A stretch of 64,000 nt of DNA from Saprospiraceae bacterium (GCA_041741155.1 JBGSKO010000116.1:29103-93102), one strand, 5' to 3'. Positions 11,238-59,402 are shown, numbered from the stretch's first letter. The notes: generated by a model from the letters alone, not told the origin. A program made the numbers and translations.

Positions 11238-14200
11238 TTACTTCTTCACCACTTTCGCTACGCTGCTGCCTTTGCTGCTTTCAACCTGTATAATGTACAG
11301 GCCGGCGGGCAGTTGCTGGATGTCGAGCGGGAATACCTGGCCGGCAAACACATTGTTGAAGCGGTGCTGAGCGGCTATGCGGCCGTCTGCGCCGATGATC
11401 TGCACTTGCACGGGACCGTCGGCGGAAGCGCCAAACGACAGGGCCACCATATCGGTAGCCGGGTTGGGTTGTACGCGCAGTCCGAGGGCGTTGTCGGTTG
11501 GCTCGTCGGTACCGACCAGCGCTCCGGCGTCCACGATCACGCCGCGCTCGGGGGCACGGGCACAAGCCACGTCGCCGGCATCGGAGCGGATACAAGCTTC
11601 GGTGTCGTAGTTCAGCATGTCCATGATGTCCACCTGATCCACTACCCAGCCGCTATTGGCTGCTGCCGTATTGTCGTCGGTGCCGAAACGGAACTGGAAG
11701 GAAATTTCCTTGCCGGCATAGTCGCTCATATCGAAATAGGAGCGCACCCAGCCGTTGGAATTGCCGGAGAAACCGCTGAGGTACGGAATAGCGAAGGTGC
11801 CGTACTGGATACCGCCGCTATAGCCGCCGCGGATAACCTGGCTGCGATCGAAACGACGCCATTGCGATTCGCCATTAATTTGAACTTCCAGAAAACCGGC
11901 ATCAGCACCGGCTTCGGTGTTGTAGTTGTGCCAGAAACGCAGTACCGGTTGTGTGCCGTTGATGGCCACCGGCGAGTAGTTCAACAGCGCCTGATCGGTT
12001 TCGGTAGCCGGTGCATCAGCTCGCCATGCCTGGCTACCCGTTTTTACAGAGTCGCCTTGCAAGTAGAAGAGGTTGTTGCCTTTGTCGTTGTTGATGAGTG
12101 AAATCCAGCGGTCGCCTTCTTCTTCCATATCGTCGCGGAAGTACAGGAGGGAGGCGGCGGTCGGGTCTGATTTGGCGGTGTAGGTCAGGGTTATTTCCTG
12201 TAAGGAAGGCATGTCACCGATGTTCCAGGTAACAACGCCGCCCACGTTGGTGCCGCCATTGGAAGCCGACACCAAGGAGAGTCCGTTAGGCAGCGGGTCG
12301 GTTACAACCACGCCTTCCGCTGTTTCGTCCTTGTGGTTGATGATTTTGATGGTAAACTCGACGTTGTCGCCGGCCGTGATGATCGGCGTGGAGGTCGTTT
12401 TGCTGATTTTCAGCTCCTTCACGCAGGTCGGGATCGGGTCAAAACTCTCGACGCCGTCGCCGGAGTTGTCGCTGCTACCCTGGCTGGCAAAGACACCCAT
12501 GCCGCGGCGGGCGAATACGCCCATGATAAGGCAGGTATCCACACCGTCGTAGTTGAGCATATCGGCGGCGATGATAGCGTCGCGGCCGTCAATAAAGCCG
12601 GGGCTGCAGGGTTGCAGTTTCATGCCGTCCATGACGAGCTGGATGGCGCGGAAGTTACCGCTGCCGGTGTTGCTCAGGTCGGCGTCGAAGCCGTATTTTT
12701 CTACAAAAGCCCAGTACAGGTCCCAGGTTACGGTAGCCCAAATTTCGCCGATCGCGTGTACGCCCGTGCTGGCGGCTACGGTTGCGAAGGTGTGTGGGTT
12801 GACGGTCATATCCGTGGAATACGGGACGCGGCGGATACCAACGCCGTCGTTGGGTTGGCGGAAAACGAAGGTGCCAACGCCACGGCGCTGCGCAGCGACG
12901 TCGCTGGCTTTGACGGTGTTAATCAGTGAAAACCAGTCGCTCCAACCCTCGCCCATTTGTTCAGCGTTACCGAGGCAGCCTGCCTGGCTGGGGCCGCCGG
13001 TGAGGCGGTTGGAGATGCCGTGGCCATATTCGTGCGAAACGATACCATTATCGAGGGCGCCGTCGAGCAAGTTAGGACCAGTGATGGTCGGGCGTACCAA
13101 CGAAATATTCAGGCCGGTGCCGACGTACTGGCGCAACAGGTCGCAGGCCGGTTTGGTCATCATGACGGTCGGAATGGTAACCTGGCCGCCAACAGCGCCG
13201 CCATCCATACCGATTGTGGCATCTTCAAAATTGCAAATGATACAGCCGATGGCGCCATTTTGCTGGGCAGTGAGGGCTTTGCGGCCAAATTCGCAGACGC
13301 CCCGGTCAACCATAGCGATTTTGCCTTGCAGGCTGTTTGCCGGCGTCGTACAGTTTTTCGTGGCGTCATTGGATCCCGAGCCATCATCGGTGATAACCAC
13401 CTCGCCGGTAACCGGATCAGCATCAATCGCGGCGCCAAAACTGCCGGCCTGGGCATAATAGGTTCCTTGCACCAGCACCGGCGCATTTACCGTCACGATA
13501 TTGCCGCTTTGGCCGCTCCAGAGGAACATCTGCATCCGGCCACGGCCACCGTCGGCGGGCGTGGCGAAGTTGGCGTTGTTCTCGCCGCCGCCGTCGAGGG
13601 CTTCGGAGCGTACGCCATCAGCTGCAGCACCGCCGTTTCCGTAATTATTTTCCTGAAAGTTACCGGCCTGCTCGTCAAAACCAAAGCGGTAGGTGATGTC
13701 GTGCATCATGTTGTTCATGTAGAACAAGTTGGTGACGGATGCCTCCAGGTTGTCGGCAGGTTCGCCGTTGGGGTCGAACGGGAAGTCGAAGTTGGCATTG
13801 GCGCCGCCATCAACAGATTCATTGGCACTTGACGTGTTGTCGTTGGCGCGGTCTTCATACGCCCACACGTTGTTGCCGCGGGTGTAGGTGTAGTCGGCGC
13901 CGGGTTGGCCATTAACGTCCAGCCAGCCAAAGGGCGATGCGATCGGGTCGGCCGGGTTAACTACCAGTGTACGACTTCCGTGTGCGGGGCTTTCGACAGG
14001 CAGCGCGAAAACGTTGTACGTCTCGTCGGCCAAGCCGTTGCCGCCGGCGGTATTTTGCGTTTTGACGGTTGATTTTTGTGTTTCGGCGACTTCATCCGGG
14101 CACACTTCCCCGAGGCGGTGTGGGTGGCCGACTTTGCAATACACCGTGTGGTTGAATTGCGTGATGATCTGGCCGGTTTGAGCGTCCACGGTGATGGTCC

Positions 14201-14783
14201 ACATATCGGCCGAGTTGGCCTGGTCGAAGAACAATTTCCAGGCGAGGCGCGGTTTGCCGAGATCGTTGAGGTCGTAGCAAATCTCGACGGGTATTTCGGC
14301 GCGGGCGACGTTGCCGGCGTCAAACACCCAGCTGCGGTCGCTGATTTTGCGCTTCAGGCCAGGCGTTTCGGCAGCCGAAAAGCCGAGGTGCGTCACGGCG
14401 ATTTCCAGCGCGCGGGAGGCTGCTAAAGAGGGCAGGGTAGTGTTCACCTGCTGGTTCAGGTCAAGCACAAAGCGGTGGCCGAGGTGCATGACCTCGCCGT
14501 TGGGCTTCACGTGCAGACCGAACAGGGCATTGTACACCGGGATGCCGATGTGCTGCTGTTGCACCCACACGTGCGTGACGCCGTTGTGTTTGGACACGTA
14601 GGCATCCGTGATGCGGACATCCGACACATCTTGCCGGGAAAGATTAAACTGGGTAGGATTACTTTGCAGGAAACGCAGAGCGGTTTCCTTGGCAGGTGCA
14701 AGGTCTTGCGCTTGTACTGAAACGGCGAGGCCGATCAGTGCGCCTGCCAAAAGCCGGAAGCGGTGTAAAATTGTTTGACGCAT
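11238..14783 (-). CDS. secreted M36 (fungalysin-family) metallopeptidase with FTP propeptide, PA-type insert and T9SS C-terminal sorting domain
   Basis: HEYGHGISNRLTGGP is the fungalysin HExxH block. A signal peptide is present. The C-terminal LRVQPNPATDMVALSF...GLYIIQVESSKGSSVAKVVKK is a typical T9SS CTD. Confidence 0.9.
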   Translation of the reverse strand: MRQTILHRFRLLAGALIGLAVSVQAQDLAPAKETALRFLQSNPTQFNLSRQDVSDVRITDAYVSKHNGVTHVWVQQQHIGIPVYNALFGLHVKPNGEVMHLGHRFVLDLNQQVNTTLPSLAASRALEIAVTHLGFSAAETPGLKRKISDRSWVFDAGNVARAEIPVEICYDLNDLGKPRLAWKLFFDQANSADMWTITVDAQTGQIITQFNHTVYCKVGHPHRLGEVCPDEVAETQKSTVKTQNTAGGNGLADETYNVFALPVESPAHGSRTLVVNPADPIASPFGWLDVNGQPGADYTYTRGNNVWAYEDRANDNTSSANESVDGGANANFDFPFDPNGEPADNLEASVTNLFYMNNMMHDITYRFGFDEQAGNFQENNYGNGGAAADGVRSEALDGGGENNANFATPADGGRGRMQMFLWSGQSGNIVTVNAPVLVQGTYYAQAGSFGAAIDADPVTGEVVITDDGSGSNDATKNCTTPANSLQGKIAMVDRGVCEFGRKALTAQQNGAIGCIICNFEDATIGMDGGAVGGQVTIPTVMMTKPACDLLRQYVGTGLNISLVRPTITGPNLLDGALDNGIVSHEYGHGISNRLTGGPSQAGCLGNAEQMGEGWSDWFSLINTVKASDVAAQRRGVGTFVFRQPNDGVGIRRVPYSTDMTVNPHTFATVAASTGVHAIGEIWATVTWDLYWAFVEKYGFDADLSNTGSGNFRAIQLVMDGMKLQPCSPGFIDGRDAIIAADMLNYDGVDTCLIMGVFARRGMGVFASQGSSDNSGDGVESFDPIPTCVKELKISKTTSTPIITAGDNVEFTIKIINHKDETAEGVVVTDPLPNGLSLVSASNGGTNVGGVVTWNIGDMPSLQEITLTYTAKSDPTAASLLYFRDDMEEEGDRWISLINNDKGNNLFYLQGDSVKTGSQAWRADAPATETDQALLNYSPVAINGTQPVLRFWHNYNTEAGADAGFLEVQINGESQWRRFDRSQVIRGGYSGGIQYGTFAIPYLSGFSGNSNGWVRSYFDMSDYAGKEISFQFRFGTDDNTAAANSGWVVDQVDIMDMLNYDTEACIRSDAGDVACARAPERGVIVDAGALVGTDEPTDNALGLRVQPNPATDMVALSFGASADGPVQVQIIGADGRIAAQHRFNNVFAGQVFPLDIQQLPAGLYIIQVESSKGSSVAKVVKK

Positions 14784-43021: not shown

Positions 43022-43257
43022 AATCGTGTGTTTTTGTATTTGAATAAGCAGTCGCAAAGGTGCAACAAGTGCTTTCCTGCTTTTATAAAATTCAATGAAC
43101 ACCGCAGATTCACCCATAAACACCCGCTTTATCTCATAAACCCAATTTCTTGCAAAAATCAGCCGGACATTGAGCCGATCCCGGGGTTGAAAGGCAACAC
43201 ACCGGTGTTGGTTGAGAATAATTGGGCAGATGCAAGACGTTTGGCACCTTTGCAACT

Positions 43258-44322
43258 ATGCATTTACCGCGTCGAAATACCTGGTTACAAATTCTATTCT
43301 GGGGTGCCCTGTGGGTACTGGTGCCGGTGGCCCTCGCCGGCAACTGGGAAAACACCGAGCGGCTCGTCGTGCGGAGCGCCGTAGTGCTCACAGGCATCGC
43401 CCTCGTCGTGTGGGCTAATGTGGAAATTTTGCTCCCCAGACTTTATTTTAACAAAAAACAGGTCGCTTACATCCTGGCGGGACTGGCGCTTCTGGTGGGC
43501 ATTGTTTTGCTGGTGGACTGGGATGCGGCGCCCTGGGCCGAACATTTTACCCGGCCACGCACCAATGACAGTACCGGCCGCGGCGGCAATCCACATAACA
43601 ATCCGGGGTACCGCAGCATGAAATATATCGGTATGGCCATGCCTTATTTCACGGCATTGATCGGTAGCGCCCTGTTTGAAGTGGCCAGTTTTGCCAACCG
43701 CAAGGAGCGCGAGGCCACGGAGTTTCGCAGCGAAAAACTGGAGGCTGAACTAAAGTTTCTCAAATCCCAAATCAACCCGCACTTCCTGTTCAACGCCCTG
43801 AACAACATTTATACCCTGACGGTCATCAAGTCTGATCAGGCGCCCGACAACCTGCTCAAACTATCCGGTATGCTGCGCTATATGTTGTACGACTGCAAAG
43901 CCGACCGTGTACCACTGGGCAAAGAAATTGAATACTTGCGGCACTTCATTGATCTGAACCTGCTCAAAGACAGCCGGGGACTCAATGTGACGGTAAGCCT
44001 TGATGAATCGCGGCCGGCGCTGTCCATCGCTCCAATGCTTCTGATTCCTTTCGTGGAAAACGCATTCAAACACAGCAAAATTGAGGATCGCGCACACGGC
44101 TGGATCCGCATCGAATTGCAAACTGCCGCCGGTCATATTCAATTTACTGTGGAAAACAGCGTGCCAGAAACCGCCCACACCAAGGACCAATCCGGCGGCA
44201 TCGGCCTGAAAAACGTGCGCCGCCAACTCGAACTCCTCTACCCCGACCAACACGAACTAACCATTGAACCCGGACCAGATACTTTCCGCGTCCGACTGAA
44301 ATTGTTGGTTGAGAACGGTTGA
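43258..44322 (+). CDS. LytS/YehU-type sensor histidine kinase
   Basis: N-terminal membrane helices. The QINPHFLFNALNNIY block is the His_kinase (PF06580-type) H-box. A C-terminal ATPase-like GGIGLKNV block is present. Confidence 0.85.
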   Translation: MHLPRRNTWLQILFWGALWVLVPVALAGNWENTERLVVRSAVVLTGIALVVWANVEILLPRLYFNKKQVAYILAGLALLVGIVLLVDWDAAPWAEHFTRPRTNDSTGRGGNPHNNPGYRSMKYIGMAMPYFTALIGSALFEVASFANRKEREATEFRSEKLEAELKFLKSQINPHFLFNALNNIYTLTVIKSDQAPDNLLKLSGMLRYMLYDCKADRVPLGKEIEYLRHFIDLNLLKDSRGLNVTVSLDESRPALSIAPMLLIPFVENAFKHSKIEDRAHGWIRIELQTAAGHIQFTVENSVPETAHTKDQSGGIGLKNVRRQLELLYPDQHELTIEPGPDTFRVRLKLLVENG

Positions 44323-44468
44323 GAAAAGTTGAGAGGGTTGAGACGGTTGAGTTGAGAGCCCGGCTGCTGCTTAAGACTGTTCAGAAAGCTCTGAACTTTC
44401 CCAACATCCCTCCTCAACCCTCTCAACTTTTCTCAACCTTTCTCAACTTTTCTCAACCTTTCTCAACC
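44308..44468. repeat. GTTGAG/CTCAAC word-array hairpin between the kinase and regulator genes
   Basis: Six GTTGAG words lie at 44308-44356 and six CTCAAC words at 44413-44467. A 25-bp perfect complement links 44318-44342 and 44413-44437, extending to about 35 bp with 1 mismatch. The array starts inside the HK stop codon region and ends 9 nt before the RR ATG. Confidence 0.8.
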
Positions 44469-44476
44469 ATAACACA

Positions 44477-45190
44477 ATGAAACCCATCCGTTGCCTTGTC
44501 GTGGACGACGAAGAACTCGCCCGCACCCTGCTCCAGAACTACATTGGGCGGCTGCCCCATCTGGAACTCGTCGCTTCCTGCGCCAACCCGCTCGAAGCTA
44601 TGAGTGTACTCCAGCAGCAGCCCATTGACCTGTTGTTTCTCGATATCCAAATGCCCGAACTTACCGGAATTGAGTTTCTCCGCACCCTGACGTACAAGCC
44701 GCTGGTCATTTTCACCACAGCTTATACCGAATATGCGCTGGACGGTTATGCGCTGGATGTAACCGATTACCTGCTCAAACCTTTTTCCTTTGAACGGTTC
44801 CTGCAAGCCGTGAACAAAGCGGGAACACTCTTGCAGTCCCGTAACGGAAATACCCCGATCGTTCTGGAAACCGAAACGCCCGTCAAGGACTACATTTTGG
44901 TAAAAGCCGACCACAAGGTACATCGGCTCAAAATGGACGATATTCTCTACATCCAAAGTATGCGGGAATATGTAGCCTTCCACACGTCGTCCGGCCGTTT
45001 ACTTTCCCTCAATGCACTGAAAAACCTGGATGAAGAATTACCCCCGGAGCGATTTATCCGAATCCACAAATCCTATATTGTGGCGATAGACAAGATAGAT
45101 ACGCTCGAAGGAAACCTCGTACACGTAGGCAAGGAAAAACTGCCCATCGGAGCAAGCTACCGGGACGCGGTGGTGCGCAGGGTATTTTAA
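44477..45190 (+). CDS. LytR/AlgR-family response regulator (receiver + LytTR DNA-binding domain)
   Basis: The receiver domain has VVDDE...LLFLDIQMPELTGIEF. The C-terminal LytTR domain has ILYIQSMREYVAFHT...FIRIHKSYIV. Confidence 0.9.
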   Translation: MKPIRCLVVDDEELARTLLQNYIGRLPHLELVASCANPLEAMSVLQQQPIDLLFLDIQMPELTGIEFLRTLTYKPLVIFTTAYTEYALDGYALDVTDYLLKPFSFERFLQAVNKAGTLLQSRNGNTPIVLETETPVKDYILVKADHKVHRLKMDDILYIQSMREYVAFHTSSGRLLSLNALKNLDEELPPERFIRIHKSYIVAIDKIDTLEGNLVHVGKEKLPIGASYRDAVVRRVF

Positions 45191-47036: not shown

Positions 47037-48824
47037 ATGCAGCACCTCGCCTACCTCAACAAGTTTTTCTGGAAATATCGCTGGCGCTTCCTCCTCGGGA
47101 TCGTGTTTGTTGGCTTTGCCAACTGGTTCCGCGTGTGGCAACCCAAGATTATCCGGGAAGCACTGGACACGGTGGTCACGCAGGTGCAGCACTACAAAGA
47201 CACCGGCGGCATTTCGGCGCACCCGGAAGCATACGAGGAACTGGGCACACAGATTGCCTGGTTTGGAGGAGCAGTCATCGTGCTGGCTTTTCTGATGGGC
47301 CTGTTCATGTTTTTTATGCGCCAGACCATTATTGTGATGAGCCGACTCATTGAGTACGATATGCGCAAGGAACTCTTTGCGCACTACACAAAACTGGATC
47401 TGGCTTTTTTTAAACGAAACAGCACGGGCGACCTTATGTCGCGCATTTCGGAGGACGTGTCCAAGGTGCGGATGTTCCTTGGCCCTACCATTTTGTACGG
47501 CCTCGACCTGATTTTTTTGTTCGTACTGACCATCTCGTCCATGCTGCGCGTGAGTGTGCCGCTCACGCTGTGGTCGTTGTTACCACTGCCGTTTCTCAGT
47601 ATTTCGATTTACTGGGTGAGTAGTGTGATGAACAGGCGCAGCGAAAAAATCCAGCAGCAACTGGCCGTGCTCACCAGTACCGCCCAAGAGGTGTACAGCG
47701 GTATCCGGGTAGTGAAGAGTTATGCGCAAGAGGATGCTATGGGTCGCCATTTTGCCGAACAAAGCGAGGTGTATCGCCAAAAAACGCTGGGACTCACCCG
47801 GGTGGATGCCTTCTTTTACCCGCTCATGATACTCATGGTAGGCGCCAGCACCATCATCACCGTCTATGTCGGGGGGCTGCAAGTCGTGCAGGGCAATATA
47901 ACCACCGGCAACATCGCCGAGTTTGTGATTTATATTAATATGCTCACCTGGCCCGTGACCGCTATCGGCTGGATTGCCTCCCTGACCCAGCAAGCCGCTG
48001 CTTCGCAAAAACGCATCAACGAATTTCTCGCCACCAAACCGACGGTAGAAAACGACCACCACCTCCCGGCAACCACCTTCCGAGGCCATATTGTTTTTGA
48101 AAATGTAGGCTTCGTATATCCCGATACGGGTATCCGGGCGCTGGAAAATGTGTCGTTCGAAGTGTTGCCCGGTCAAAAAATGGCCATCGTGGGCCGCACA
48201 GGGTCGGGCAAGACAACCATTGCCGACCTGTTACTCCGTATGTACGATGTAACGGAAGGCCGTATCCTGCTCGACGGCAAGGATTTGCGCGAACATGACC
48301 TGTACCAGTTACGCCGCCGCATCGGGTATGTCCCGCAAGATGTGTTTCTGTTTTCGGACACCGTACAGGGAAATATTGCCTTCGGTAACGCTGACATTGC
48401 CCGCGAACAGGCCGAGTTTTTTGCCAAAAGCGCCGCAGTGCATAGTGACATCATGGGCTTGCCCAAAAACTACGAAACCCTGGTGGGCGAACGGGGTGTA
48501 ACCCTCTCCGGCGGTCAAAAACAACGCATCAGCATTGCGCGGGCATTTGCCAAACAGCCCGATATCGTGCTGCTCGACGACTGTTTATCTGCGGTGGACA
48601 CGCATACGGAAAGCCAGATTTTGGGCTACCTGAGCCAGGCACTGGCTGACAAAACAGCCATTATCATTACCCACCGGATTTACGGGATGCTGGAGTTTGA
48701 CAAAATTATTGTGCTGGAAGACCACCGGATTGCCGACTCCGGCACACACGAAGAACTGCTTGCCAAAGGCGGTTACTACGCCGAGTTGTTCGAAAAACAA
48801 TCCGCAGGGGGACTTGTCGAATAA
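47037..48824 (+). CDS. ABC exporter, fused permease/ATPase (MsbA-like); no N-terminal C39 peptidase domain
   Basis: Six N-terminal TM helices begin at the N-terminus. Walker A is GRTGSGKTT, the signature is LSGGQKQRISIARA and Walker B is IVLLDD. Confidence 0.9.
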   Translation: MQHLAYLNKFFWKYRWRFLLGIVFVGFANWFRVWQPKIIREALDTVVTQVQHYKDTGGISAHPEAYEELGTQIAWFGGAVIVLAFLMGLFMFFMRQTIIVMSRLIEYDMRKELFAHYTKLDLAFFKRNSTGDLMSRISEDVSKVRMFLGPTILYGLDLIFLFVLTISSMLRVSVPLTLWSLLPLPFLSISIYWVSSVMNRRSEKIQQQLAVLTSTAQEVYSGIRVVKSYAQEDAMGRHFAEQSEVYRQKTLGLTRVDAFFYPLMILMVGASTIITVYVGGLQVVQGNITTGNIAEFVIYINMLTWPVTAIGWIASLTQQAAASQKRINEFLATKPTVENDHHLPATTFRGHIVFENVGFVYPDTGIRALENVSFEVLPGQKMAIVGRTGSGKTTIADLLLRMYDVTEGRILLDGKDLREHDLYQLRRRIGYVPQDVFLFSDTVQGNIAFGNADIAREQAEFFAKSAAVHSDIMGLPKNYETLVGERGVTLSGGQKQRISIARAFAKQPDIVLLDDCLSAVDTHTESQILGYLSQALADKTAIIITHRIYGMLEFDKIIVLEDHRIADSGTHEELLAKGGYYAELFEKQSAGGLVE

Positions 48825-48831
48825 ACGTCTG

Positions 48832-50469
48832 CTATTGCCCGTTGGGGCGGAGCGCTTGTATTGCCGGCTGGAGTCTGAGTACTTTCACATTCGCTCCGGC
48901 TTTTGCCGCGGATTTAATGGTTTGCAACGCCCTGGCTGTATCGCCCTTTTGCATTTGGGCATCCACGGCTATTTGTACGGCTTCCACATTTGTTGGATCA
49001 CGTCTCAAAACTTCTTTCGCCTGCGTTTCTGCGCTGGTTGCATCGCCCAGGCCAAGGTTTGCCTTCGCTGCTCCGATGCGGGCGTCAAGGTTGTTTTTGC
49101 TGGAAGCGACAATACGCTCCATTTTGTCGCGTCGCCGCTCAAGTGCCGAAGTACTGTCTTGCACCTGCCGTGCTTTATCCTCTATCCAGGTACTGTCCAG
49201 GTCGCCGTATTGTTTGGCTGTTTGAAGTTCCTGATTGGCTTTTTCCGGCTGACTACTGCCCAAAAACGCCTTGATGCGCGCCTCGCGCAAAGCCGGCTCC
49301 ACCGTTTTATTTGAAGGGGATACTGCCTCCAAATCGCGCGCTGCGGCCCGGTAATCCTTGAGCTGAAGCAGCAGGGCGCCGCGTTTGGTGTGTGCTGTGG
49401 CATTATCCGGGAAATGCTCCAGCACTTTATCATACTCGGCAATTGCCTTTTCGGGCTCGTTCTGCACAAAATAACGGTCGGCCATAATGAAACTGGTGGT
49501 CGTGTCCACCGGATGGGCCTCCGCGCCCGGATCATCGCTTTTGAGGGCAGCAAGGTCCGCGTCCATGGCTCGCAGTGCATTGGCAGCAATGGGCGATCGT
49601 TTGTAGTTGGCCAGTACCATGTACAACATCCGGCTCACGGCTTTTACGTCACTTGTCAGAGCGGCTTCCTCCGTTACAGAGAGCAGGCGGTTAATGGTCG
49701 TATCTCCGCCGAAGCGAACGCCGCCGCCATCGAGCAGGCGGTAGCGCACGTCAATGGTATAGCTGTTGTTTTCGCGTTTCCGGACTTTGCCCCAAACCAG
49801 CATTTGTGCGCTGCAATTGCGCGCTATGTCAACGGCTTGCGCGGAATTGGGGTAGTTTTGATCAATATCGTAGCGCTTGTGTACGTCTGCGATCGTCTTG
49901 GTACGTAATTCCGGTGTCTGATCAATCCAGTCATTCAGCTCATCCATGATGTCAATGGCCGGATTTTCGCCGCGCTGTGCCCCCATAAAAGGAAGAATCA
50001 TCACGCGCGTTTCAGCCTCTTCGCTAAACGAGGGGCAATCCTCGGACTGGTATAAAAATACAAACCACAACACAGCGGCGATGATCAATGCAGCTCCACC
50101 GCCAATGGCGTAGTAACGCCACACTTTGGTACGGCTTGGTTCGGACTCTTGCTCGAAGGAAACTTTTCCGGACTCCAGCAGTCGTACGATTTTGAGGGCA
50201 TTATCAGCCAGTTGATTGGTCGTACGGCGCGCCTCGTCTCCAGAGATCGTGCCTTTCAGATTCTGGGCCTTCAACTGATACAGATCGCCCTGGTTGACTC
50301 GGGCAATATTGGCCAATTCAGCGTATTCCTCCGAAGATTCCAATAGTATGACCAACTGGTCGTAGCCCTCCTCCAGATTACCCTGGCTGACGAGCTGTTT
50401 TATTTGAGCAAGCGCCTTTTTGATCTCCATGGTTTCGATTGATTTCGAATAATGCAATTGTCCTGCCAA
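48832..50469 (-). CDS. single-pass membrane protein: N-terminal cytoplasmic helical module, periplasmic domain + TPR repeats
   Basis: 545-aa ORF. The TM helix YYAIGGGAALIIAAVLWFVFLY lies around residue 120 and C-terminal TPR-like repeats follow. The start could instead be M14. Confidence 0.7.
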   Translation of the reverse strand: MAGQLHYSKSIETMEIKKALAQIKQLVSQGNLEEGYDQLVILLESSEEYAELANIARVNQGDLYQLKAQNLKGTISGDEARRTTNQLADNALKIVRLLESGKVSFEQESEPSRTKVWRYYAIGGGAALIIAAVLWFVFLYQSEDCPSFSEEAETRVMILPFMGAQRGENPAIDIMDELNDWIDQTPELRTKTIADVHKRYDIDQNYPNSAQAVDIARNCSAQMLVWGKVRKRENNSYTIDVRYRLLDGGGVRFGGDTTINRLLSVTEEAALTSDVKAVSRMLYMVLANYKRSPIAANALRAMDADLAALKSDDPGAEAHPVDTTTSFIMADRYFVQNEPEKAIAEYDKVLEHFPDNATAHTKRGALLLQLKDYRAAARDLEAVSPSNKTVEPALREARIKAFLGSSQPEKANQELQTAKQYGDLDSTWIEDKARQVQDSTSALERRRDKMERIVASSKNNLDARIGAAKANLGLGDATSAETQAKEVLRRDPTNVEAVQIAVDAQMQKGDTARALQTIKSAAKAGANVKVLRLQPAIQALRPNGQ

Positions 50470-52564: not shown

Positions 52565-53041
52565 CTATTCCGAGTGATCGAAATACTGCGCCAAGGCTTC
52601 CAGGAAGATATCTTTCTGACCGGCAGAAACAGTAAGCGTTGCGCTGTTTTGGAGTACAACATGTCCCCCTTTTCCTTTCACATATTTTTTGATGTGCCGC
52701 AAATGGATCGTGTGTGAGCGGTGGATGCGCACAAATGCCGAGACCGGCAGCATGAGTTCCACCTCGCGCAGCGTGCGGCACACCAGGATTTGCCGGCCAT
52801 CCAGAAAATGCAGCACCGTGTAATTACCGCTCGCTTCGAGGTACGCGATATGCTTGACCTTCTCAAAACACAGGCCGTCCATCGTGGGCAAAACTACCTT
52901 GCTGGACTTCCCCGGGTCGTATGGTTGCGTACGACCCGGGGCTGGCGTCCGGTAATGGTCGGTGGTTAATGGCAGCGCGCGGGCACTGCGCACGGGTTCG
53001 GAGAATTCGGCAGCGGTCGGGTACGGTAAAGCGGTCATCAT
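52565..53041 (-). CDS. stand-alone LytTR DNA-binding protein (no receiver domain)
   Basis: The start is taken at MMTALPYP. A Pro-rich linker of about 50 aa precedes the LytTR domain (VKHIAYLEASGNYTVLHFLDGRQILVCRTLREVELML...FVRIHRSHTIHLRHI). Confidence 0.8.
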   Translation of the reverse strand: MMTALPYPTAAEFSEPVRSARALPLTTDHYRTPAPGRTQPYDPGKSSKVVLPTMDGLCFEKVKHIAYLEASGNYTVLHFLDGRQILVCRTLREVELMLPVSAFVRIHRSHTIHLRHIKKYVKGKGGHVVLQNSATLTVSAGQKDIFLEALAQYFDHSE

Positions 53042-53170
53042 AGCAGTGCAATTTGAAATAAATGATGGGACAAAAGTATCGGCACGTCCAACCGTGACCA
53101 ACCCAAGTTTGGCGGATAAGTCAGGTTTCAAAGGCTTCTTTTGCATTTGGCCGGCCGGCAAAAAACCGGC

Positions 53171-53200
53171 ACTTTTGTCCAATCAAAAACAACTTTTGCC
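53171..53200 (+). promoter_or_regulatory. candidate LytTR operator: 9-bp direct repeats with a 12-bp spacer
   Basis: ACTTTTGTC (53171-53179), spacer caatcaaaaaca, then ACTTTTGCC (53192-53200), ending 44 bp upstream of the ATG at 53244. A third exact ACTTTTGTC lies inverted at 53069-53077, 28 bp upstream of the LytTR gene ATG. Confidence 0.45.
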
Positions 53201-53243
53201 GATCCGCCGTCGGCATTCGGGGTATCAGGCACCAAACCCAAAC

Positions 53244-54788
53244 ATGTCCAAGACACCTTCCGACAAACTCTTTCGCCTCATTCGCGGGCTCACGCCTGTG
53301 GAGAAGCGGTATTTTCATGTTTTTGTGGGCGGCAAAGTCGGACAGACCAGTAAGTATGTGCAATTGTTTGATGCCATTTCGGAGGTGGACTCCTTCGACG
53401 ACGAAGCGTTGCGCCGGAAAATCTACCAGAACAATCCGGTGGAAAGCAAGAAATTCTCGGAGCTTAAGGCATATCTGTATGACCTTATCCTGAAGAGTTT
53501 GCAGGCCTTTGATGAGCAGCATTCCGTAGATTTTCGGATAAACCACCAGTTACAAAGTGTGGCTGTTCTGTTCAAACGCGGGCATTACGACGCCTGTCAG
53601 GAATTACTCCGCAAAGCCGCCAAGACGGCACGCCACTACGAATGTTTTACTCATCTGCTGGAGATTGTACGCTGGGAAAAACACCTCGCGTACACCCGCA
53701 TGGATGTAGATTTTTTACACAAGCAATTTGATCAGTTGCAATTCACCGAAAAACGCGCAATGGAGCAATTGCACAATGTGGCCCAGTATCGCAACCTCTT
53801 TTTCCAGGTCTATACCACCATCAAGCGCGATGCCCTGCACCGCGGCGAGGAGCGTATGGAGCGCCTGCAAAATATTGTACAACACGACCTGCTCCGCGAC
53901 CTCGAACACGCACAATCGCACACCGCGCGGGTACTGTACTACCGCACGCTCAACCTGTACTTTTATGCCGCATCCGAACGCGAGCAGTTTTACGACACCG
54001 GCCTAAAAATGATTGAGCTTCTGGAGTCGCAACCCCACTTTTTGACAGAAAACCTGGCCGATTACATTGCTGCACTCAGTAATTTTATCCTCTCCTGCGG
54101 TCTGCTGGAGCGCTATGACGAAGTGCGCATCGCACTGGATAAACTACAGAAAATCAAACCATTAACTGCGGACGACCGTTTAAAAATTCACCGGCAATAC
54201 TATACCAACAAGTTTGTCCTGTGCATTTTTACCGGTGATTTTGAAGAAGGACGCCGGGAAATGGATCGTTGCCAATCGGAGGCCGGCCGGCTCGATCCGC
54301 ACGACTACGAGACGGCCAGTTTTTACTTTCAGTATTGTTGTATTTGTTTCGGCTGCGGTGACTACAACGGGGCGCTCGGCTACCTGAACGAGTGGCTCAA
54401 CCAACCGCGCACCGTGGAGCGCGAAGACCTGCAAAGCCTCGCCCGAATCCTTGCACTCATCATCCATTTTGAAATGGGAAACACCCTTTTGATTGAATCC
54501 CTGATGCGCTCGGCAACACGATTTTTACAAAAGAAAAACCGCCTCTACGATCTGGAGCGGCGGTTCTTTCATTTTATATCCGAACTGATGCGCGTGCCCA
54601 CGGAGCGGGAGCGGCAACATGCATTTCAAAAAATGCGCGACGACCTCGCGCAACTGTCTGATTGGCCGGGTGCCCGGGCGCTATTGCAAACGTTTGACCT
54701 GGACGCCTGGCTGGATGCCAAAATCAACAACCGGGCCTTTGCTGATTCCGTGAAAACCAAATGGGATCAAAAGAGACCGTTAACCTAA
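53244..54788 (+). CDS. 514-aa all-helical (TPR-like) hypothetical protein
   Basis: The start is taken at MSKTPSDKLFRLIRGLTPVEKRYFHVF. The ORF is long, uninterrupted and helix-rich. It has no signal peptide, TM segment or catalytic motif. Confidence 0.7.
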   Translation: MSKTPSDKLFRLIRGLTPVEKRYFHVFVGGKVGQTSKYVQLFDAISEVDSFDDEALRRKIYQNNPVESKKFSELKAYLYDLILKSLQAFDEQHSVDFRINHQLQSVAVLFKRGHYDACQELLRKAAKTARHYECFTHLLEIVRWEKHLAYTRMDVDFLHKQFDQLQFTEKRAMEQLHNVAQYRNLFFQVYTTIKRDALHRGEERMERLQNIVQHDLLRDLEHAQSHTARVLYYRTLNLYFYAASEREQFYDTGLKMIELLESQPHFLTENLADYIAALSNFILSCGLLERYDEVRIALDKLQKIKPLTADDRLKIHRQYYTNKFVLCIFTGDFEEGRREMDRCQSEAGRLDPHDYETASFYFQYCCICFGCGDYNGALGYLNEWLNQPRTVEREDLQSLARILALIIHFEMGNTLLIESLMRSATRFLQKKNRLYDLERRFFHFISELMRVPTERERQHAFQKMRDDLAQLSDWPGARALLQTFDLDAWLDAKINNRAFADSVKTKWDQKRPLT

Positions 54789-54994
54789 AAGATGCTGGTC
54801 TTGTCACCGGGACGCGTGATTGCCTCGCTCTCATCCGAGCGCGTATCTACGGAAGTCCAGCGGGTACGGTAGGTGAAGCGACGGCCGCGAATGATGTAGA
54901 AACCACCCTTAATGTGGTTCATTTCAGTTTCGTCCAGCGTGGTGACGAAGCTCTTGATCTTGAGATCGGTAAGTGAAAGTTTAGATTTTGCCAT
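54785..54994 (-). CDS. 69-aa peptide with a double-glycine (bacteriocin/RiPP-type) leader
   Basis: MAKSKLSLTDLKIKSFVTTLDETEMNHIKGG | FYIIRGRRFTYRTRWTSVDTRSDESEAITRPGDKTSIF. The leader resembles Bacteroidota GG-type natural-product precursors. Codon usage is GC3-rich like neighbouring genes. The stop overlaps the convergent 514-aa gene stop by 4 nt. Confidence 0.55.
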   Translation of the reverse strand: MAKSKLSLTDLKIKSFVTTLDETEMNHIKGGFYIIRGRRFTYRTRWTSVDTRSDESEAITRPGDKTSIF

Positions 54995-55163
54995 AAGATA
55001 CAGAAGTTTGAATTGAGCAGAATGAAGATTAACAGTGCTAATGTAACCGAAATATAGACACCCTGTTCGGAGGCGCACTTACCAGTTTTTTGGAAAAGTC
55101 AGGTTTCAGAAGGTTGATTTTTTGAGCGTGATCGAAAAGATGGATGCGATTACGCGCAGAAAA

Positions 55164-55628
55164 TTACAGATTTTGGAAAACCAATTCCGGCTCAAAGCCT
55201 GCGCGGATGAGTGCTGCGGCGATCTTGGCTCGGGCATTGGGGTCACTGCGGTACTGCCTGCGTTTTTTTTCCAAAATATCCTGCAGTACGGTAAGGTACT
55301 CCGTTTCGTCAATGGTATCAAGCGCCTGTACGATCAGATCAGACGCTATGGCACGCTGCCGCAGTTCCAGCCGGATGCGCACACGCCCCCAGTGGTTTAC
55401 CCGAAACTTGCCGCCGGCAAAAGCGTGGGCGAAACGCTCCTCGTTCACAAAACCCTCGCCCATCAGCACCTGCCAAATTTGCTCGGCGGTTTCGCCTTCC
55501 AGTCCTAACTCGGCCATTTTGCGGTGTACCTCTTGCGGACAACGCTCCCGGTAGGCGCAGTAGTTTTCCATCTTGGCCAATGCCTCATCCGTGGTAAGGG
55601 GCTTGGCCGGTTGTTTTTGAAATGCCAT
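55164..55628 (-). CDS. recX: regulatory protein RecX
   Basis: 154 aa. The N-terminal ...ALAKMENYCAYRERCPQEV... is followed by repeated three-helix modules typical of RecX. Confidence 0.75.
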   Translation of the reverse strand: MAFQKQPAKPLTTDEALAKMENYCAYRERCPQEVHRKMAELGLEGETAEQIWQVLMGEGFVNEERFAHAFAGGKFRVNHWGRVRIRLELRQRAIASDLIVQALDTIDETEYLTVLQDILEKKRRQYRSDPNARAKIAAALIRAGFEPELVFQNL

Positions 55629-55718: not shown

Positions 55719-58700
55719 TTACCGTTGCACCACGACCAAACGCCGAACCACAGCTTCCCGGGTTCGGATGAGCACCGAGTACATACCCGGTGGAAGGCGA
55801 TCACAAGCCAGCATCACGTCAGGCATAGCGCGTCCATAGTGCTCCAGCACCGTCCGCCCTGTAGCATCAAGGAGAAATACTTGCACCTCGGGCTGATCCG
55901 GGCCGAGGTAACGCAGATACAGCTGCCCGCATGTCGGGTTTGGGTAAAGGACCCATTTGTTGTCCTTTGAAATATCCGGGGCCGAAACGCCAGTGTCCAT
56001 CACGGGCACCACCTGTGCGTTGGTGCAGCCATTGGAGCCGGTCACAATCACCGTGTAATCTCCCGCCGTCAGGCCGTTTATATTTTCCAGATTGGAAATA
56101 AACTGTCCGTTGAAAAACCACTCCACCGTGTACGCCCCCGAATGGGAAACTGCAACAGAAATAGAACCAAGCCCCTGCCCAAAAGTGTCATGCACAACTT
56201 GAAGCACACCGATTTGTGGTATCTCTACGTCCTGCTGCACTGTGATGGTGACCGTACTCGTGCAGCCGTTCGCCGGGTTGACCACCTCCAGGGTATAGAT
56301 GCCAGGCAGGGTAACCTCCGGGTTGAGCAGGTTGGAGAAAAAACCATTGGGACCACTCCAGGCATACACCAGGCCGGGCATATTGGCGGTGGCTTGTAGC
56401 ACAATGGAGGGATTGGCACAAGTCAGTTTTCCCGACGATGTAATCAGCACAAGTGGCATTTGCTGGTCTATGTACACGGTAGCCGTAGCCACAGTGGAAC
56501 ATCCGTTACCGGGATTTGTAACGGCAACGGAGTAAATACCAGCCTCGTTTACGACAGGGTTTTGCTCCATAGAGATAAAGCCGCCCGGCCCAGACCAGGC
56601 AAAAATGGCGTTTGGCGTTACTGTTTCTGCTTGTAAAACAACACCGGGCTGGTTGCAGCGCAACGTATCGTCTGCTACGCTGACACTGGGCGCATTGCTA
56701 TCCTGATAAATCTGAACGGTCGCTGTATTGGTGCAGCCATTTGGCGCCGTGGCCACCACCATATAGCAAAACCCGACAGGATTTTCCACACAAATACACT
56801 CCGACATGGGAATATCCACTTCGCAAGTGATCGTTGTGGTCTGGTTGTAACAATTAATGGTATCGGCAGAAACAGTGATGATCGGTATTTGAAAATCAGC
56901 GACAACCGTCATTTCGGCGGTTGTCGTGCAGCCGTTGGCTCCTGTAACGGTCAGCAGAAAAACACCGGGGCTGTCCACGATCGGGTTGGGGCCCGGAACA
57001 ATGATGCCCGGCCCGGACCAGCTGCAAGTGCCTTGCGCGAATGGAGGGCACGGCAACACCAGATCAGGGTTGGTGCAGTTGATGACGGCATTGGCCGGGA
57101 TGGAAATAGCTGGTGTGACCAGATCGGCCAGTACCAGTGCAGTGGTCTGGGCCGTACAACCTGTTGCCGGATCGGTTACTACAAGGATGTAGGCGCCAGG
57201 CTGATCTACAACCGGATCTTCCTCGCTGGAGAAAAACCCGCCTGGCCCCGTCCAGACAAACGACAAGCCTGCCGGAGTGGCGTTGGCGTCCAATTGCACC
57301 ATAGGCTGGGCACAAGTAATGATTCCGTCTTGAACGGCCACCTGTGGAGGCGTCCCGCCAAATTGAACGGTAATGGTATCGGACGCTTCGCAGGTTTTCC
57401 CGCCGGCCATTGAGGTAGCTACCAAAATGTATGTCCCCGAACTGGAAACAGTTGCCGAGTTGCCCGTGGCAATGGTATCCCCGTCCAGCATTTTCCAGAT
57501 TTTGGCACCCGGAGACGGGACGGCGTTCAATACAAGCGGCGGTTCGGTACAAAGCGGGTGCGGGATCGGTTCAATTTGTGCCAGCGGTTCGAGTACAGCT
57601 ACTATGGGCAAAAAAACGGTGGAATCACATCCCAGATAGGATTCACAAACTTTACTGTGGTTGCCCACATCGCCGAATGCCTCTCCACAGATAACGATGG
57701 AATCGCCGGCACACAAGATTTGTGCAGCGTAGAAAAATCGTATCGGCGCCCGGATATTCACTTGCTGGCAAACAACACTATCGCAGCCTAAATAACTGGT
57801 GTAGGTGAAGCAGTAGGTTCCCGGAACCGGGCATTCTTCCCCCCAAGGAGTATAGTACGGGGCATCTTCGGCGCAGATGGTGACCGGGGGCAGGTTGGTG
57901 ACCGGGATGGGCGTTACGGTTATTTGCTTACACCTCAGTGTGCCGATATAGCAGGAGTTGAGTGGTTGGACACAAACCTGACCTGAATTTGTGCCGAAGG
58001 TAATTTGAGCAAAATTGCTGCCGGCGCCGACCAATGTCGCCGGAGCAGGAAGGCCATTTATTAAACTACCAGGTGGAGCAGTCCAAGTGTATGCACCCGC
58101 TCCAGCTACAGTTAGTGTAGAATAATCAAATGTGCCGCCCGGACAAATGGCGGAAGGACCAAAGATTGGGCCGGTGATCCCTATCGGATTGGGAACTGCC
58201 GCACCAGGCGGAACTGCTGACAGTTGAAAATCGCACTGATCGCCGGCGTATCCATCAATCAACAGGAAGTATGTGGTGCCGGGTACCAATGATGCCTTGA
58301 TGGATACCGGTGTGTCGCCGTAGCCCTGACCGCCCTCGTTGCAGGCAATCGGGTCATAATCGTTACATGACGGGTACAGCGCAATCTGAATGCCATTTCC
58401 ATTCTCACAATTATACGGTGTTGCGGTAAACGTAGCAGACGCGGCACCTGCTACAAAGCCGATCCATTGCTCATTTTCGATGGTGCCACAAAACCCCGAG
58501 GGCGTTTGGCCGGTATAGCCGTAAGTAGAACCAGTGTATCCGTTGAAGTTGCACAACACGCAGGCGTCGTAACACAAGTCTGCGGGGAAATAATTGTCTT
58601 CCGGGCAAGGTGGCGGAAGAAATTCAGTTCCAATTGAAAAAAACAAACAAGATTCGGCGCCTTGCGAACAGGCGTTGATCGGCGTGACACAAAGACTACC

Positions 58701-59402
58701 GTTCTGACTACCAAGCGTCACGGTTACCTTGGTGCCTGCCGGCGCCGGGATGATCACGGGAGATGCCTGCCCATTGATCAGGATGTCGTTCGGCCCCGTC
58801 CAGCGGTAGGCCGTTGCCCCGGGAACAGCAGCCACCGAGTATTCCTGCACGCTGAACGGAGCGACTACCCACGGTCCTCCTATCGGTCCCGCTGAATCTA
58901 CCGGCGGCGGCGCCACAGCATCGGCCGGCCCGGTCGCTATCTGAAAGGAGCACAAATCCCCGTCATAACCATCTACCATCAGGTAATATGTCTCTCCCGG
59001 AATAACATTCGCCGCTATGTCTCGCGCTACGTTTCCATCGCCGGGTTGTCCGGCGGCGCAAGCAATCGGCGCATCCGAGCAATTCCGATACAGGGCAATT
59101 TCGATGCCGTCGCCTGTTTGGCAATTCGACGGCATCACACTGATGGCAATACCATCCGCTCCAGCCACAAATGCAAACCATTGGTTGTTTTCCACCGCAC
59201 CGCAAAAACCAGGTGCAGGGTTGGCCGTAAAACCATTTGTCTGCCCGATGCGCCCATTAAGGAAACAATGCAGGCACGCATCCGCACAGGCACTGGCGCC
59301 AGGCGTTTGGGCTGTCGTGCAAACGATGGGATTTTGACTCCAGAGAGAACCTGAGAAAAGGAGCAGGAAAAAGAGCGAAAGCAGGGGGTAATTTTTTTTC
59401 AT
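55719..59402 (-). CDS. 1227-aa secreted repeat protein (two Cys-rich N-terminal modules, PKD/Ig-like repeats, T9SS sorting domain)
   Basis: Signal peptide MKKNYPLLSLFFLLLFSGSLWSQ. A ~135-aa module is duplicated (C..AC..C...FCG..EN.QW..FVAG...DGY.GD.C.FQ). About 7 tandem repeats carry W(S/T)GPGGF.S...NP.V...G.Y...V...NGC. C-terminal LYPNPTCGQLYLRY...GMYSVLIRTREAVVRRLVVVQR. Confidence 0.85.
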   Translation of the reverse strand: MKKNYPLLSLFFLLLFSGSLWSQNPIVCTTAQTPGASACADACLHCFLNGRIGQTNGFTANPAPGFCGAVENNQWFAFVAGADGIAISVMPSNCQTGDGIEIALYRNCSDAPIACAAGQPGDGNVARDIAANVIPGETYYLMVDGYDGDLCSFQIATGPADAVAPPPVDSAGPIGGPWVVAPFSVQEYSVAAVPGATAYRWTGPNDILINGQASPVIIPAPAGTKVTVTLGSQNGSLCVTPINACSQGAESCLFFSIGTEFLPPPCPEDNYFPADLCYDACVLCNFNGYTGSTYGYTGQTPSGFCGTIENEQWIGFVAGAASATFTATPYNCENGNGIQIALYPSCNDYDPIACNEGGQGYGDTPVSIKASLVPGTTYFLLIDGYAGDQCDFQLSAVPPGAAVPNPIGITGPIFGPSAICPGGTFDYSTLTVAGAGAYTWTAPPGSLINGLPAPATLVGAGSNFAQITFGTNSGQVCVQPLNSCYIGTLRCKQITVTPIPVTNLPPVTICAEDAPYYTPWGEECPVPGTYCFTYTSYLGCDSVVCQQVNIRAPIRFFYAAQILCAGDSIVICGEAFGDVGNHSKVCESYLGCDSTVFLPIVAVLEPLAQIEPIPHPLCTEPPLVLNAVPSPGAKIWKMLDGDTIATGNSATVSSSGTYILVATSMAGGKTCEASDTITVQFGGTPPQVAVQDGIITCAQPMVQLDANATPAGLSFVWTGPGGFFSSEEDPVVDQPGAYILVVTDPATGCTAQTTALVLADLVTPAISIPANAVINCTNPDLVLPCPPFAQGTCSWSGPGIIVPGPNPIVDSPGVFLLTVTGANGCTTTAEMTVVADFQIPIITVSADTINCYNQTTTITCEVDIPMSECICVENPVGFCYMVVATAPNGCTNTATVQIYQDSNAPSVSVADDTLRCNQPGVVLQAETVTPNAIFAWSGPGGFISMEQNPVVNEAGIYSVAVTNPGNGCSTVATATVYIDQQMPLVLITSSGKLTCANPSIVLQATANMPGLVYAWSGPNGFFSNLLNPEVTLPGIYTLEVVNPANGCTSTVTITVQQDVEIPQIGVLQVVHDTFGQGLGSISVAVSHSGAYTVEWFFNGQFISNLENINGLTAGDYTVIVTGSNGCTNAQVVPVMDTGVSAPDISKDNKWVLYPNPTCGQLYLRYLGPDQPEVQVFLLDATGRTVLEHYGRAMPDVMLACDRLPPGMYSVLIRTREAVVRRLVVVQR

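Follow-up and report, generated by a model that had tools for sequence, protein, structure and literature searches.

Peptide-mediated cell-cell signalling is a textbook feature of Gram-positive bacteria, and to our knowledge it is almost undocumented in Gram-negative phyla. In the Com, Blp and Pln pheromone loops, a precursor with a double-glycine (GG) leader and a LytTR regulator are placed under direct-repeat operators, which is the architecture of autoinduction, and in some Rgg/SHP pairs and in prgX/prgQ the peptide and regulator genes converge, as they do at the locus described here. The RRNPP systems are presented as a Firmicutes feature (PMC10075063). Receiver-less LytTR regulators activate their own genes through two 9-bp direct repeats that are separated by a spacer of 11-13 bp and lie just upstream of the -35 element, and they also control bacteriocin genes (PMC6193735). 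In Bacteroides thetaiotaomicron, genetic evidence shows that activating transcription of the rus (ribose) locus requires RusR (bioRxiv 10.1101/574913). The present analysis concerns a stretch of 64,000 nucleotides from a Saprospiraceae bacterium (GCA_041741155.1 JBGSKO010000116.1:29103-93102; hereafter the window, with positions counted from its first letter), in which the gene of a small GG-leader precursor adjoins those of a tetratricopeptide repeat (TPR) protein and a LytTR protein. The cassette that they form is a possible module for peptide signalling in Gram-negative bacteria. Its three genes are the following:

54785-54994, minus strand: precursor peptide gene, 69 amino acids (aa) plus a TAG stop (translation, homologues, purifying selection)
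53244-54788, plus strand: RusR-like TPR superhelix protein of 514 aa, convergent with the peptide gene (NF058569 alignment, AlphaFold2 (AF2) model, Foldseek)
52565-53041, minus strand: LytTR-only DNA-binding protein of 158 aa without a receiver, divergent from the TPR gene (PF04397 at aa 58-150, E 6e-14); no Response_reg domain was found in it

The cassette is conserved across Saprospiraceae/Lewinellaceae, in approximately 80 species that are represented entirely by uncultured metagenome-assembled genomes (MAGs). Eighty loci, each from a different GTDB species, were compared, 79 of which could be tested for the peptide. An orthologue of the peptide was detected with an hmmsearch profile in 77 of these 79, and in the same proportion of testable species (77/79) its gene and the TPR gene are immediate, convergent neighbours. 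The LytTR gene adjoins the TPR gene in 75 of the 80 loci, that is, in all those where the contig reaches far enough, including the two that lack the peptide. The genes beyond the cassette differ between loci, and recX was rejected as a functional partner, as it adjoins in only about 49 of the 80. The first-pass annotation had regarded the peptide gene as an orphan in an unrelated neighbourhood, a picture that gives way to a LytTR-TPR-peptide trio found across about 80 species with differing outer flanks, and to an operator common to the peptide and LytTR genes. The locus is vertically inherited, in a syntenic chromosomal context, and is not a biosynthetic cluster. The cassette also occurs at locus L025, on a 2.6-kb contig (JAKLJF010000862.1) of a MAG labelled Thermoanaerobaculia (Acidobacteriota), where the peptide, also recorded as protein P0030, is identical to that of L024; this contig was most likely mis-binned, rather than acquired by horizontal transfer.

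The peptide open reading frame (ORF) is a genuine gene, in which the leader and the core are under purifying selection and the tail is near neutral. A codon alignment of 74 distinct orthologues gave ratios of non-synonymous to synonymous polymorphism (pN/pS) of 0.34 (leader), 0.44 (core) and 0.92 (C-terminal tail), with the greatest variability at third codon positions. Full-length homologues numbered 52 (65-83 aa) in one protein search and 235 in a second, made with a 40-aa leader profile, whose matches were mostly orthologues among the 120 listed of the 235; the full-length homologues are 47-99% identical, and there are more than 235 homologue clusters. The ORF, which has no Pfam match, occupies the 375 bp that separate the stop of recX (55164-55628, minus strand) from that of the convergent plus-strand TPR gene, and its own stop overlaps the latter by 4 nt (54785-54788). 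The GC content at its third codon positions (GC3) is 0.64, and that of the neighbouring genes is 0.57-0.68. The 69-aa translation is identical to the sequence first quoted, with residues 1-31 ending in I-K-G-G. The first-pass annotation was thus right that the ORF codes for a protein, as the homologues, the selection by codon position and the 77 orthologues among 79 loci indicate, and its translation, its description of a gap-filling ORF and its gene-like GC3 were all reproduced from the sequence. The gene is present as a single copy per locus, and no paralogues were found in the 64-kb window.

Three segments can be distinguished in the precursor:

54902-54994, minus strand: double-glycine leader, aa 1-31, MAKSKLSLTDLKIKSFVTTLDETEMNHIKGG (NF038180 match, conserved recognition positions)
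54830-54901, minus strand: conserved Cys-free core, aa 32-55, FYIIRGRRFTYRTRWTSVDTRSDE (invariant residues in 74 orthologues)
54788-54829, minus strand: variable C-terminal tail, aa 56-69 (pN/pS and orthologue alignment)

The leader is of the pinensin type. Searches with GG-leader precursor models, which the first-pass annotation had proposed besides likening the leader to Bacteroidota pinensin leaders, bore this out: the leader reaches 45.6 bits with the NCBIfam model NF038180 (leader_pinensin), whose cutoff of 24 is passed by all 50 aligned homologues. It remains below the cutoffs of the generic bacteriocin GG-signal model TIGR01847 (13.7 bits, cutoff 15.7) and of TIGR04149, which describes GG precursors of Bacteroidota modified by radical S-adenosylmethionine (SAM) enzymes (20.1 bits, cutoff 25), although sub-threshold TIGR04149 matches are found in 30 of 50 family members. 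Among the 74 orthologues, Gly at -1 and -2, Met/Leu at -7, Leu at -12, Thr at -14 and Ser at -17 are present in all, Val/Leu/Ile at -4 in 73 and Val at -15 in 67; the recognition positions of C39 double-glycine peptidases are essentially fixed. When 1.84 billion representatives were searched exhaustively with a profile, 474 matches emerged, of which the best 150 were inspected. In 92 of these 150, the leader alone is common to the match and the peptide, and the core contains at least two Cys residues and is lanthipeptide-like; about 25 of the 150 carry the core motif of the present family. A 4307-aa adhesin-like repeat protein (P0281) was set aside as spurious, because it matched the peptide profile in 16 stretches through a repeated ...NVTTLD...YLGGG... 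motif.

Conservation is higher in the core, which is cationic and aromatic, than in the leader. Residues G37, R45, W46, T47 and R52 are invariant in the 74 orthologues, D50 is found in 73 and Y42 in 71, which yields the signature G-[RK]-[RK]-x-x-Y-x-x-R-W-T-x-[VI]-D-[TV]-R. Such predominance of core over leader conservation is not typical of precursors of RiPPs (peptides synthesized by ribosomes and modified post-translationally), and a core nearly invariant across the family is the opposite of a hypervariable natural-product core, a property not visible from one sequence. The last 14 residues or so drift in both length and sequence among orthologues. The 38-aa part that follows the GG motif contains six Thr, four Ser and no Cys, and one orthologous core of 74 has a Cys, single and non-conserved; it was therefore correctly foreseen that lanthionine cannot be formed, for want of Cys in the core. 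The mature peptide has a pI of 10.2 and a net charge of about +3; with a maximum 19-residue hydropathy of 0.26, it is neither hydrophobic nor amphipathic. The AF2 model of the peptide alone consists of a weak three-strand sheet of low confidence (predicted local distance difference test (pLDDT) 54), which is consistent with a peptide that would gain order only upon binding or modification. In two distant relatives, P0283 and P0284, the core motif is kept as R-V/L-R-W-T-S-V-D-I/T-R, with W-T-x-[VIL]-[DE]-x-R retained, behind a different GG leader devoid of the SFVT motif; core and leader thus seem from these alignments to be separable modules.

The genomic context does not contain the machinery of lanthipeptide biosynthesis. 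Pfam and NCBIfam scans covered the 38 largest ORFs that were taken as likely genes in the 64 kb and identified no LanB, LanC, radical-SAM, YcaO or Peptidase_C39 domain, so that the lack of RiPP enzymes and of a C39 transporter, which the first-pass annotation had stated for the vicinity, extends to the whole window. The same domains are absent from the Pfam-annotated flanks, up to 10 kb on either side, of six other loci, two of which lie on short contigs. A PADLOC scan returned nothing. A 595-aa ABC exporter is encoded at 47037-48824 (plus strand), with ABC_membrane and ABC_tran domains and no C39 domain. A LytS-type histidine kinase (PF06580) is encoded with a receiver-LytTR response regulator at 43222-45190 (plus strand); this pair and the exporter are located 6-11 kb from the peptide gene, are syntenic in the close relative L004 and lie outside the conserved cassette. 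In public databases, NCBI names P0008, P0016, P0017, P0030, P0046, P0049, P0052 and others "pinensin family lanthipeptide", and one family member is called "natural product precursor" by JGI. The former name is misleading for Cys-free peptides, because it rests on the leader alone and the defining features, Cys residues and Lan enzymes, are lacking. More than 200 Cys-free proteins are called lanthipeptides through the leader-only model NF038180, which inflates the counts of lanthipeptide clusters in genome mining.

The peptide and LytTR genes are each preceded by a copy of an operator of about 30 nt, GAAACCTGACTT[T/A]T-N5-6-AAAA-N-TTGG. The operators and promoter elements in the window are located as follows:

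55074-55109, minus strand: operator copy 1, CTGAAACCTGACTTTTCCAAAAAACTGGTAAGTGCG, some 80-115 nt ahead of the peptide ATG (element caGAAACCTGACTTTTccAAAAAnTTGG, about 95 nt upstream of it); score 43.5 with a position weight matrix (PWM)
55038-55056, minus strand: two elements resembling the Bacteroidota -7 box, TATATTTCG and TACATTAG, between operator and peptide ATG, as read from the sequence
53096-53131, minus strand: operator copy 2, TTGAAACCTGACTTATCCGCCAAACTTGGGTTGGTC, upstream of the LytTR gene in the divergent intergenic region; PWM score 30.3
53071-53078, minus strand: LytTR promoter, -7 box TACTTTTG, some 20 nt beyond a TTG, conserved as ggTACTTTTGt in about 60 loci
53146-53177, plus strand: putative promoter of the TPR gene, TTTG-N20-CACTTTTG, from an alignment of the 110 nt upstream of the gene in about 80 loci

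The operator comprises a pair of imperfect direct repeats of 9 bp each, AAACCTGAC and AAAsTTGGn, separated by 8 bp and thus with a period of 17-18 nt; copy 2 has TTAT where copy 1 has TTTT. With the PWM, which was built from about 134 operator sites, copies 1 and 2 were the only two sites detected in the 64-kb window. Operator-type sites occur at 77 peptide-promoter positions, and on the LytTR side there are about 60 sites within one mismatch, with variant forms in all 15 of the other loci inspected. The LytTR-side operator is thus present in every locus examined, and the second copy is found at the peptide gene where this gene exists; in the peptide-less loci L084 and L088, a variant operator, AGAAAACTGACATAT, precedes the LytTR genes. 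In three lineages the two sites have changed in parallel (CCTGAC to ACTGAC; CTGACTT to CTGATTT; CTTTT or CTTAT to CTTTA), and these matched substitutions argue for a single factor that would read both copies.

The promoters that accompany the operators differ in their make-up. The Bacteroidota -7 consensus is TAnnTTTG. On the LytTR side the operator directly abuts the TTG, which with TACTTTTG makes a canonical Bacteroidota -33/-7 promoter. The peptide promoter has a -7-like box (TAnnTTT) about 20-26 nt downstream of the operator and no clear -33 element; equivalent boxes, TATCTTTCG and TATCTTTG, are conserved in orthologous peptide promoters. In the spacer of the putative TPR promoter lies one operator-like unit, AAAAACCGGCAC in the window and AAAAC[C/T]GACA in most species (L010-L089 compared). 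Since this position is typical of repression, the TPR gene might be repressed by whichever factor recognises the operators of the LytTR and peptide genes. A scan for sigma-70 promoters and terminators returned nothing at the conserved promoter elements. A GC-rich dyad between the operator and the -7-like box of the peptide gene (55057-55076, minus strand) displays apparent compensatory changes in several species (CCCGC...GCGGG vs CCTGC...GCAGG); its interpretation as a conserved hairpin or attenuator was dropped, single-sequence folds over about 135 sites being weak and inconsistent. At the other end of the peptide gene, the intergenic gap to the TPR gene is 0-50 nt in most species, which leaves no room for terminators between the convergent genes. 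Read-through from the peptide promoter would run antisense to the whole TPR gene and then, on the same strand, into the LytTR gene.

The product of the TPR gene has orthologues at 48-98% identity. Its start is the Met at 53244: a 608-aa ORF from a GTG at 52962 was rejected as over-extended, the orthologues having 506-534 aa, and the additional stretch (52962-53243, plus strand) crosses the divergent LytTR/TPR promoter region. The protein aligns with positions 1-500 of the 502 of profile NF058569 (BT_2802_fam) at 170.6 bits, the cutoff being 550, and by this alignment it is homologous to RusR/BT2802 while falling outside the curated family. No Pfam match was obtained with either the whole length or aa 1-79, and sequence searches of the PDB gave marginal partial matches only, the best (E 0.0012) being to a 75-residue stretch of a TPR protein. 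The AF2 model (pLDDT 85) has 25 helices, including four short N-terminal ones, and its Foldseek matches are exclusively TPR-type solenoids, namely Ski3, LbcA, RapH, LapB, LGN and domain III of MalT. On this model the protein is predicted to be a ligand- or peptide-binding scaffold, not an enzyme. Neither the TPR protein nor the LytTR protein has a segment at transmembrane-level hydropathy, and both are predicted to be soluble and cytoplasmic. The most divergent TPR clade (48-52% identity) has a peptide core that has decayed to W-T-x-x-K-T-R, or has no peptide gene (L084, L088).

Among the options named in the first-pass annotation, which included a signalling peptide, an unmodified cationic peptide and a substrate of distant enzymes, the evidence shifts weight toward a regulatory or signalling function, each of the three retaining some probability. 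The reading that we favour, if only tentatively, is that the peptide is a signal or an output of an autoregulated LytTR/TPR circuit and not a lanthipeptide. In this circuit, the LytTR protein would bind the direct repeats and activate both its own gene and that of the peptide, thereby creating positive feedback, and it may also repress the TPR gene. The precursor would be cut after Gly-Gly and exported by an ABC transporter with a C39 peptidase domain, encoded elsewhere in the genome, to yield a peptide of about 38 aa whose functional epitope would be the invariant G-R-R-x-x-Y-x-x-R-W-T-x-V-D-T-R. The TPR protein would be the likeliest partner or receptor of the peptide, because its predicted fold is of a peptide-binding type and its divergence parallels that of the peptide, and it might couple peptide level to LytTR activity in the manner of Rap-Phr or Rgg-SHP pairs or of inhibitor-controlled LytTR systems. 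We infer export, processing and TPR binding of the peptide.

Several observations weigh against this circuit. The cassette contains no exporter, C39 peptidase or uptake system. The spacer between the repeats measures 8 bp, whereas 11-13 bp are typical of LytTR operators. The peptide alone is predicted by AF2 at low confidence. The core is invariant across the family, whereas pheromones usually diversify between species, and this invariance argues against a "private" quorum signal. Finally, the two species devoid of the peptide keep the LytTR and TPR genes as well as the LytTR operator, implying that the circuit can run without it.

A bolder version of the autoregulated circuit, possible in our view but doubtful, is that the cassette represents a family-wide, vertically inherited form of Gram-negative peptide signalling, with an exported GG peptide, a cytoplasmic RusR-like TPR receptor and a receiver-less LytTR autoregulator. 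If true, it would combine features of two kinds of circuit, RRNPP and LytTR pheromone circuits, in a hybrid, although to date each is known essentially from Firmicutes, and a pinensin-type leader would have been recruited from lanthipeptide biosynthesis to signalling.

Among the alternatives, the one that survives best, although it is unlikely, is that of a RiPP precursor whose modifying enzymes are encoded at a distance in the genome, with the leader as the enzyme-recognition handle and with LytTR and TPR proteins that merely regulate production. Candidate modifications would be the dehydration of Ser/Thr residues by a split LanB without cyclisation, a change made to the Tyr/Trp/Arg/Thr motif by a radical-SAM enzyme or an enzyme of another kind, or the formation of Thr/Ser-Asp esters by an ATP-grasp enzyme. 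The leader is indeed indistinguishable from those of bona fide Cys-rich class I precursors, as its NF038180 score and the 92 Cys-rich proteins among the best 150 matches attest, and the weak sub-threshold TIGR04149 matches in 30 of 50 members point in the same direction. The core that follows this leader has no Cys, and its invariance is unlike the variability of natural-product cores; its invariant Tyr, Trp, Thr, Asp and Arg residues could nevertheless be modification sites. Precursors located far from their enzymes are known elsewhere, the cyanobacterial LanM precursors being an example (discussed in PMC7268733). In the present case, no modification enzyme is found in the 64 kb or in the annotated flanks of the six other loci, the locus is vertically inherited in a syntenic chromosomal context, and the sole conserved neighbours are regulator-like, without an enzyme fold. 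For a new RiPP class, no positive evidence was found.

It is less probable still that the product is a small protein that stays inside the cell and is not exported at all, with a former leader and basic core that would act as an anti- or co-regulator by directly binding nucleic acid or one of the TPR and LytTR proteins. Purifying selection acts precisely on the positions that C39 peptidases read (GG and the hydrophobic residues at -4, -7, -12 and -15), and the conservation of the leader equals that in hundreds of exported lanthipeptide precursors. Moreover, the core is kept behind a different GG leader in P0283 and P0284, which suggests that in these distant relatives the leader behaves as an exchangeable export module. 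Intracellular action would nonetheless fit with the lack of an exporter or peptidase nearby, with the predicted cytoplasmic location of both partner proteins and with the strong conservation of both the core and the TPR protein, as in an obligate protein-protein pair; the convergent, overlapping 3' ends would similarly suggest tight control of co-expression.

An unmodified, class-II-like cationic bacteriocin or antimicrobial peptide, exported by way of its GG leader and switched on by LytTR as are the streptococcal Blp peptides and the mutacins, is improbable. The charge and pI of the mature peptide would suit such a role, but the peptide is neither hydrophobic nor amphipathic. Direct activation of bacteriocin genes by way of direct repeats is known for LytTR regulators, among them receiver-less ones (PMC6193735), and an operator does lie upstream of the peptide gene; the cassette, however, comprises no immunity-like or transporter gene. 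Bacteriocins also diversify rapidly, whereas this core is invariant over about 80 species and its gene is present in one copy per locus, without paralogues in the window. Lastly, a chance ORF, or conservation owed to a non-coding RNA or to the 3' end of the neighbouring gene, might be suspected given a short ORF without Pfam match, but this explanation is effectively refuted by the full-length protein homologues, the orthologues and a selection that tracks the codon positions of this very frame, as well as by the gene having its own conserved promoter region and by an Rfam scan without any match above threshold (RcsR1, inside the TPR gene, reached 26 bits for a gathering score of 60).

The autoregulated LytTR/TPR circuit has the merit of being compact and testable, with three genes in about 2.2 kb, a defined operator of 30 nt and an invariant epitope of 24 aa. 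It also broadens the setting of RusR-like TPR proteins, known from a sugar-utilisation locus, which are seen here to be paired as well with LytTR proteins and peptides, and the LytTR/peptide pairing hints at a broader class of one-component sensors in Bacteroidota.

Other genes of the window are mentioned for completeness. A 545-aa protein (48832-50469, minus strand), whose gene is syntenic in L004, combines an N-terminal EAD11 domain (Effector-associated domain 11, PF19964) with TPR repeats; domains of the EAD kind are commonly associated with conflict or signalling systems. A very large secreted metallopeptidase of the M36 fungalysin type, sorted by the type IX secretion system (T9SS) and containing PA, DUF11 and MAM domains, is encoded at 11238-14783 (minus strand), and a T9SS-sorted PKD-domain protein of 1227 aa at 55719-59402 (minus strand), directly upstream of recX.

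Literature searches for Saprospiraceae with lanthipeptide, or for LytTR with Bacteroidetes and double-glycine, returned no description of the family or of the cassette, which can nonetheless be compared with several known systems. With the precursors of the pinensin type (PinA; NF038180; LxLxKx5L/GG leaders, PMC7268733), the peptide shares a homologous leader, with a K-rich start, L-x-L-x-D-L-K-V-x-S-F-V-T-x-L and K-G-G. Unlike those class I precursors, it has a Cys-free and invariant core, and unlike the pinensin loci, its surroundings hold no split LanB, LanC or C39 transporter, a regulatory cassette taking the place of the biosynthetic cluster. The TPR protein is homologous over its full length to RusR (BT2802), the candidate regulator of the ribose utilisation locus of B. 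thetaiotaomicron, but its 170.6 bits are far under the cutoff of 550, its context includes no ribokinase or SusC/D, and its gene is paired with those of a LytTR protein and a GG peptide.

In the HdrRM and BrsRM systems of Streptococcus mutans (PMC6193735), as here, a receiver-less LytTR protein has repeats upstream of its own promoter and a dedicated partner encoded by an adjacent gene. The placing of these direct repeats just upstream of the LytTR promoter implies positive autoregulation, and just as bacteriocin genes belong to the HdrRM/BrsRM regulon, the operator here precedes a GG-peptide gene. The partner, however, is a soluble, all-helical TPR protein encoded divergently instead of a co-operonic transmembrane inhibitor, and the spacer between the repeats is 8 bp instead of 11-13 bp, such that the resemblance is architectural and not exact.

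The RRNPP systems (Rap-Phr, NprR-NprX, PlcR-PapR, PrgX-cCF10, Rgg-SHP; PMC10075063) likewise place a small propeptide gene beside that of a cytoplasmic TPR-type protein. RapH is among the Foldseek neighbours of the TPR model, and peptide binding is predicted here on that structural basis. In contrast with RRNPP regulators, the TPR protein has no Pfam RRNPP membership, is larger (514 aa, about 25 helices) and is accompanied by a separate LytTR protein; the peptide has a GG leader instead of a Sec or SHP-type route, and the host lies outside Firmicutes.

Finally, ComC/ComDE, BlpC/BlpRH and PlnA/PlnBCD of Firmicutes similarly combine a GG precursor with direct-repeat operators that are common to the precursor and LytTR regulator genes. 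The present cassette differs from them in having no histidine kinase, receiver domain or adjacent ComAB-type exporter, in its repeat spacer of 8 bp rather than about 12 bp, in a peptide that is invariant rather than split into pherotypes, and in its Gram-negative host, a member of Bacteroidota. The cassette is thus a variant of peptide-regulator circuits that are already known, in a phylum where it was not expected and with a wrong label in public annotation.

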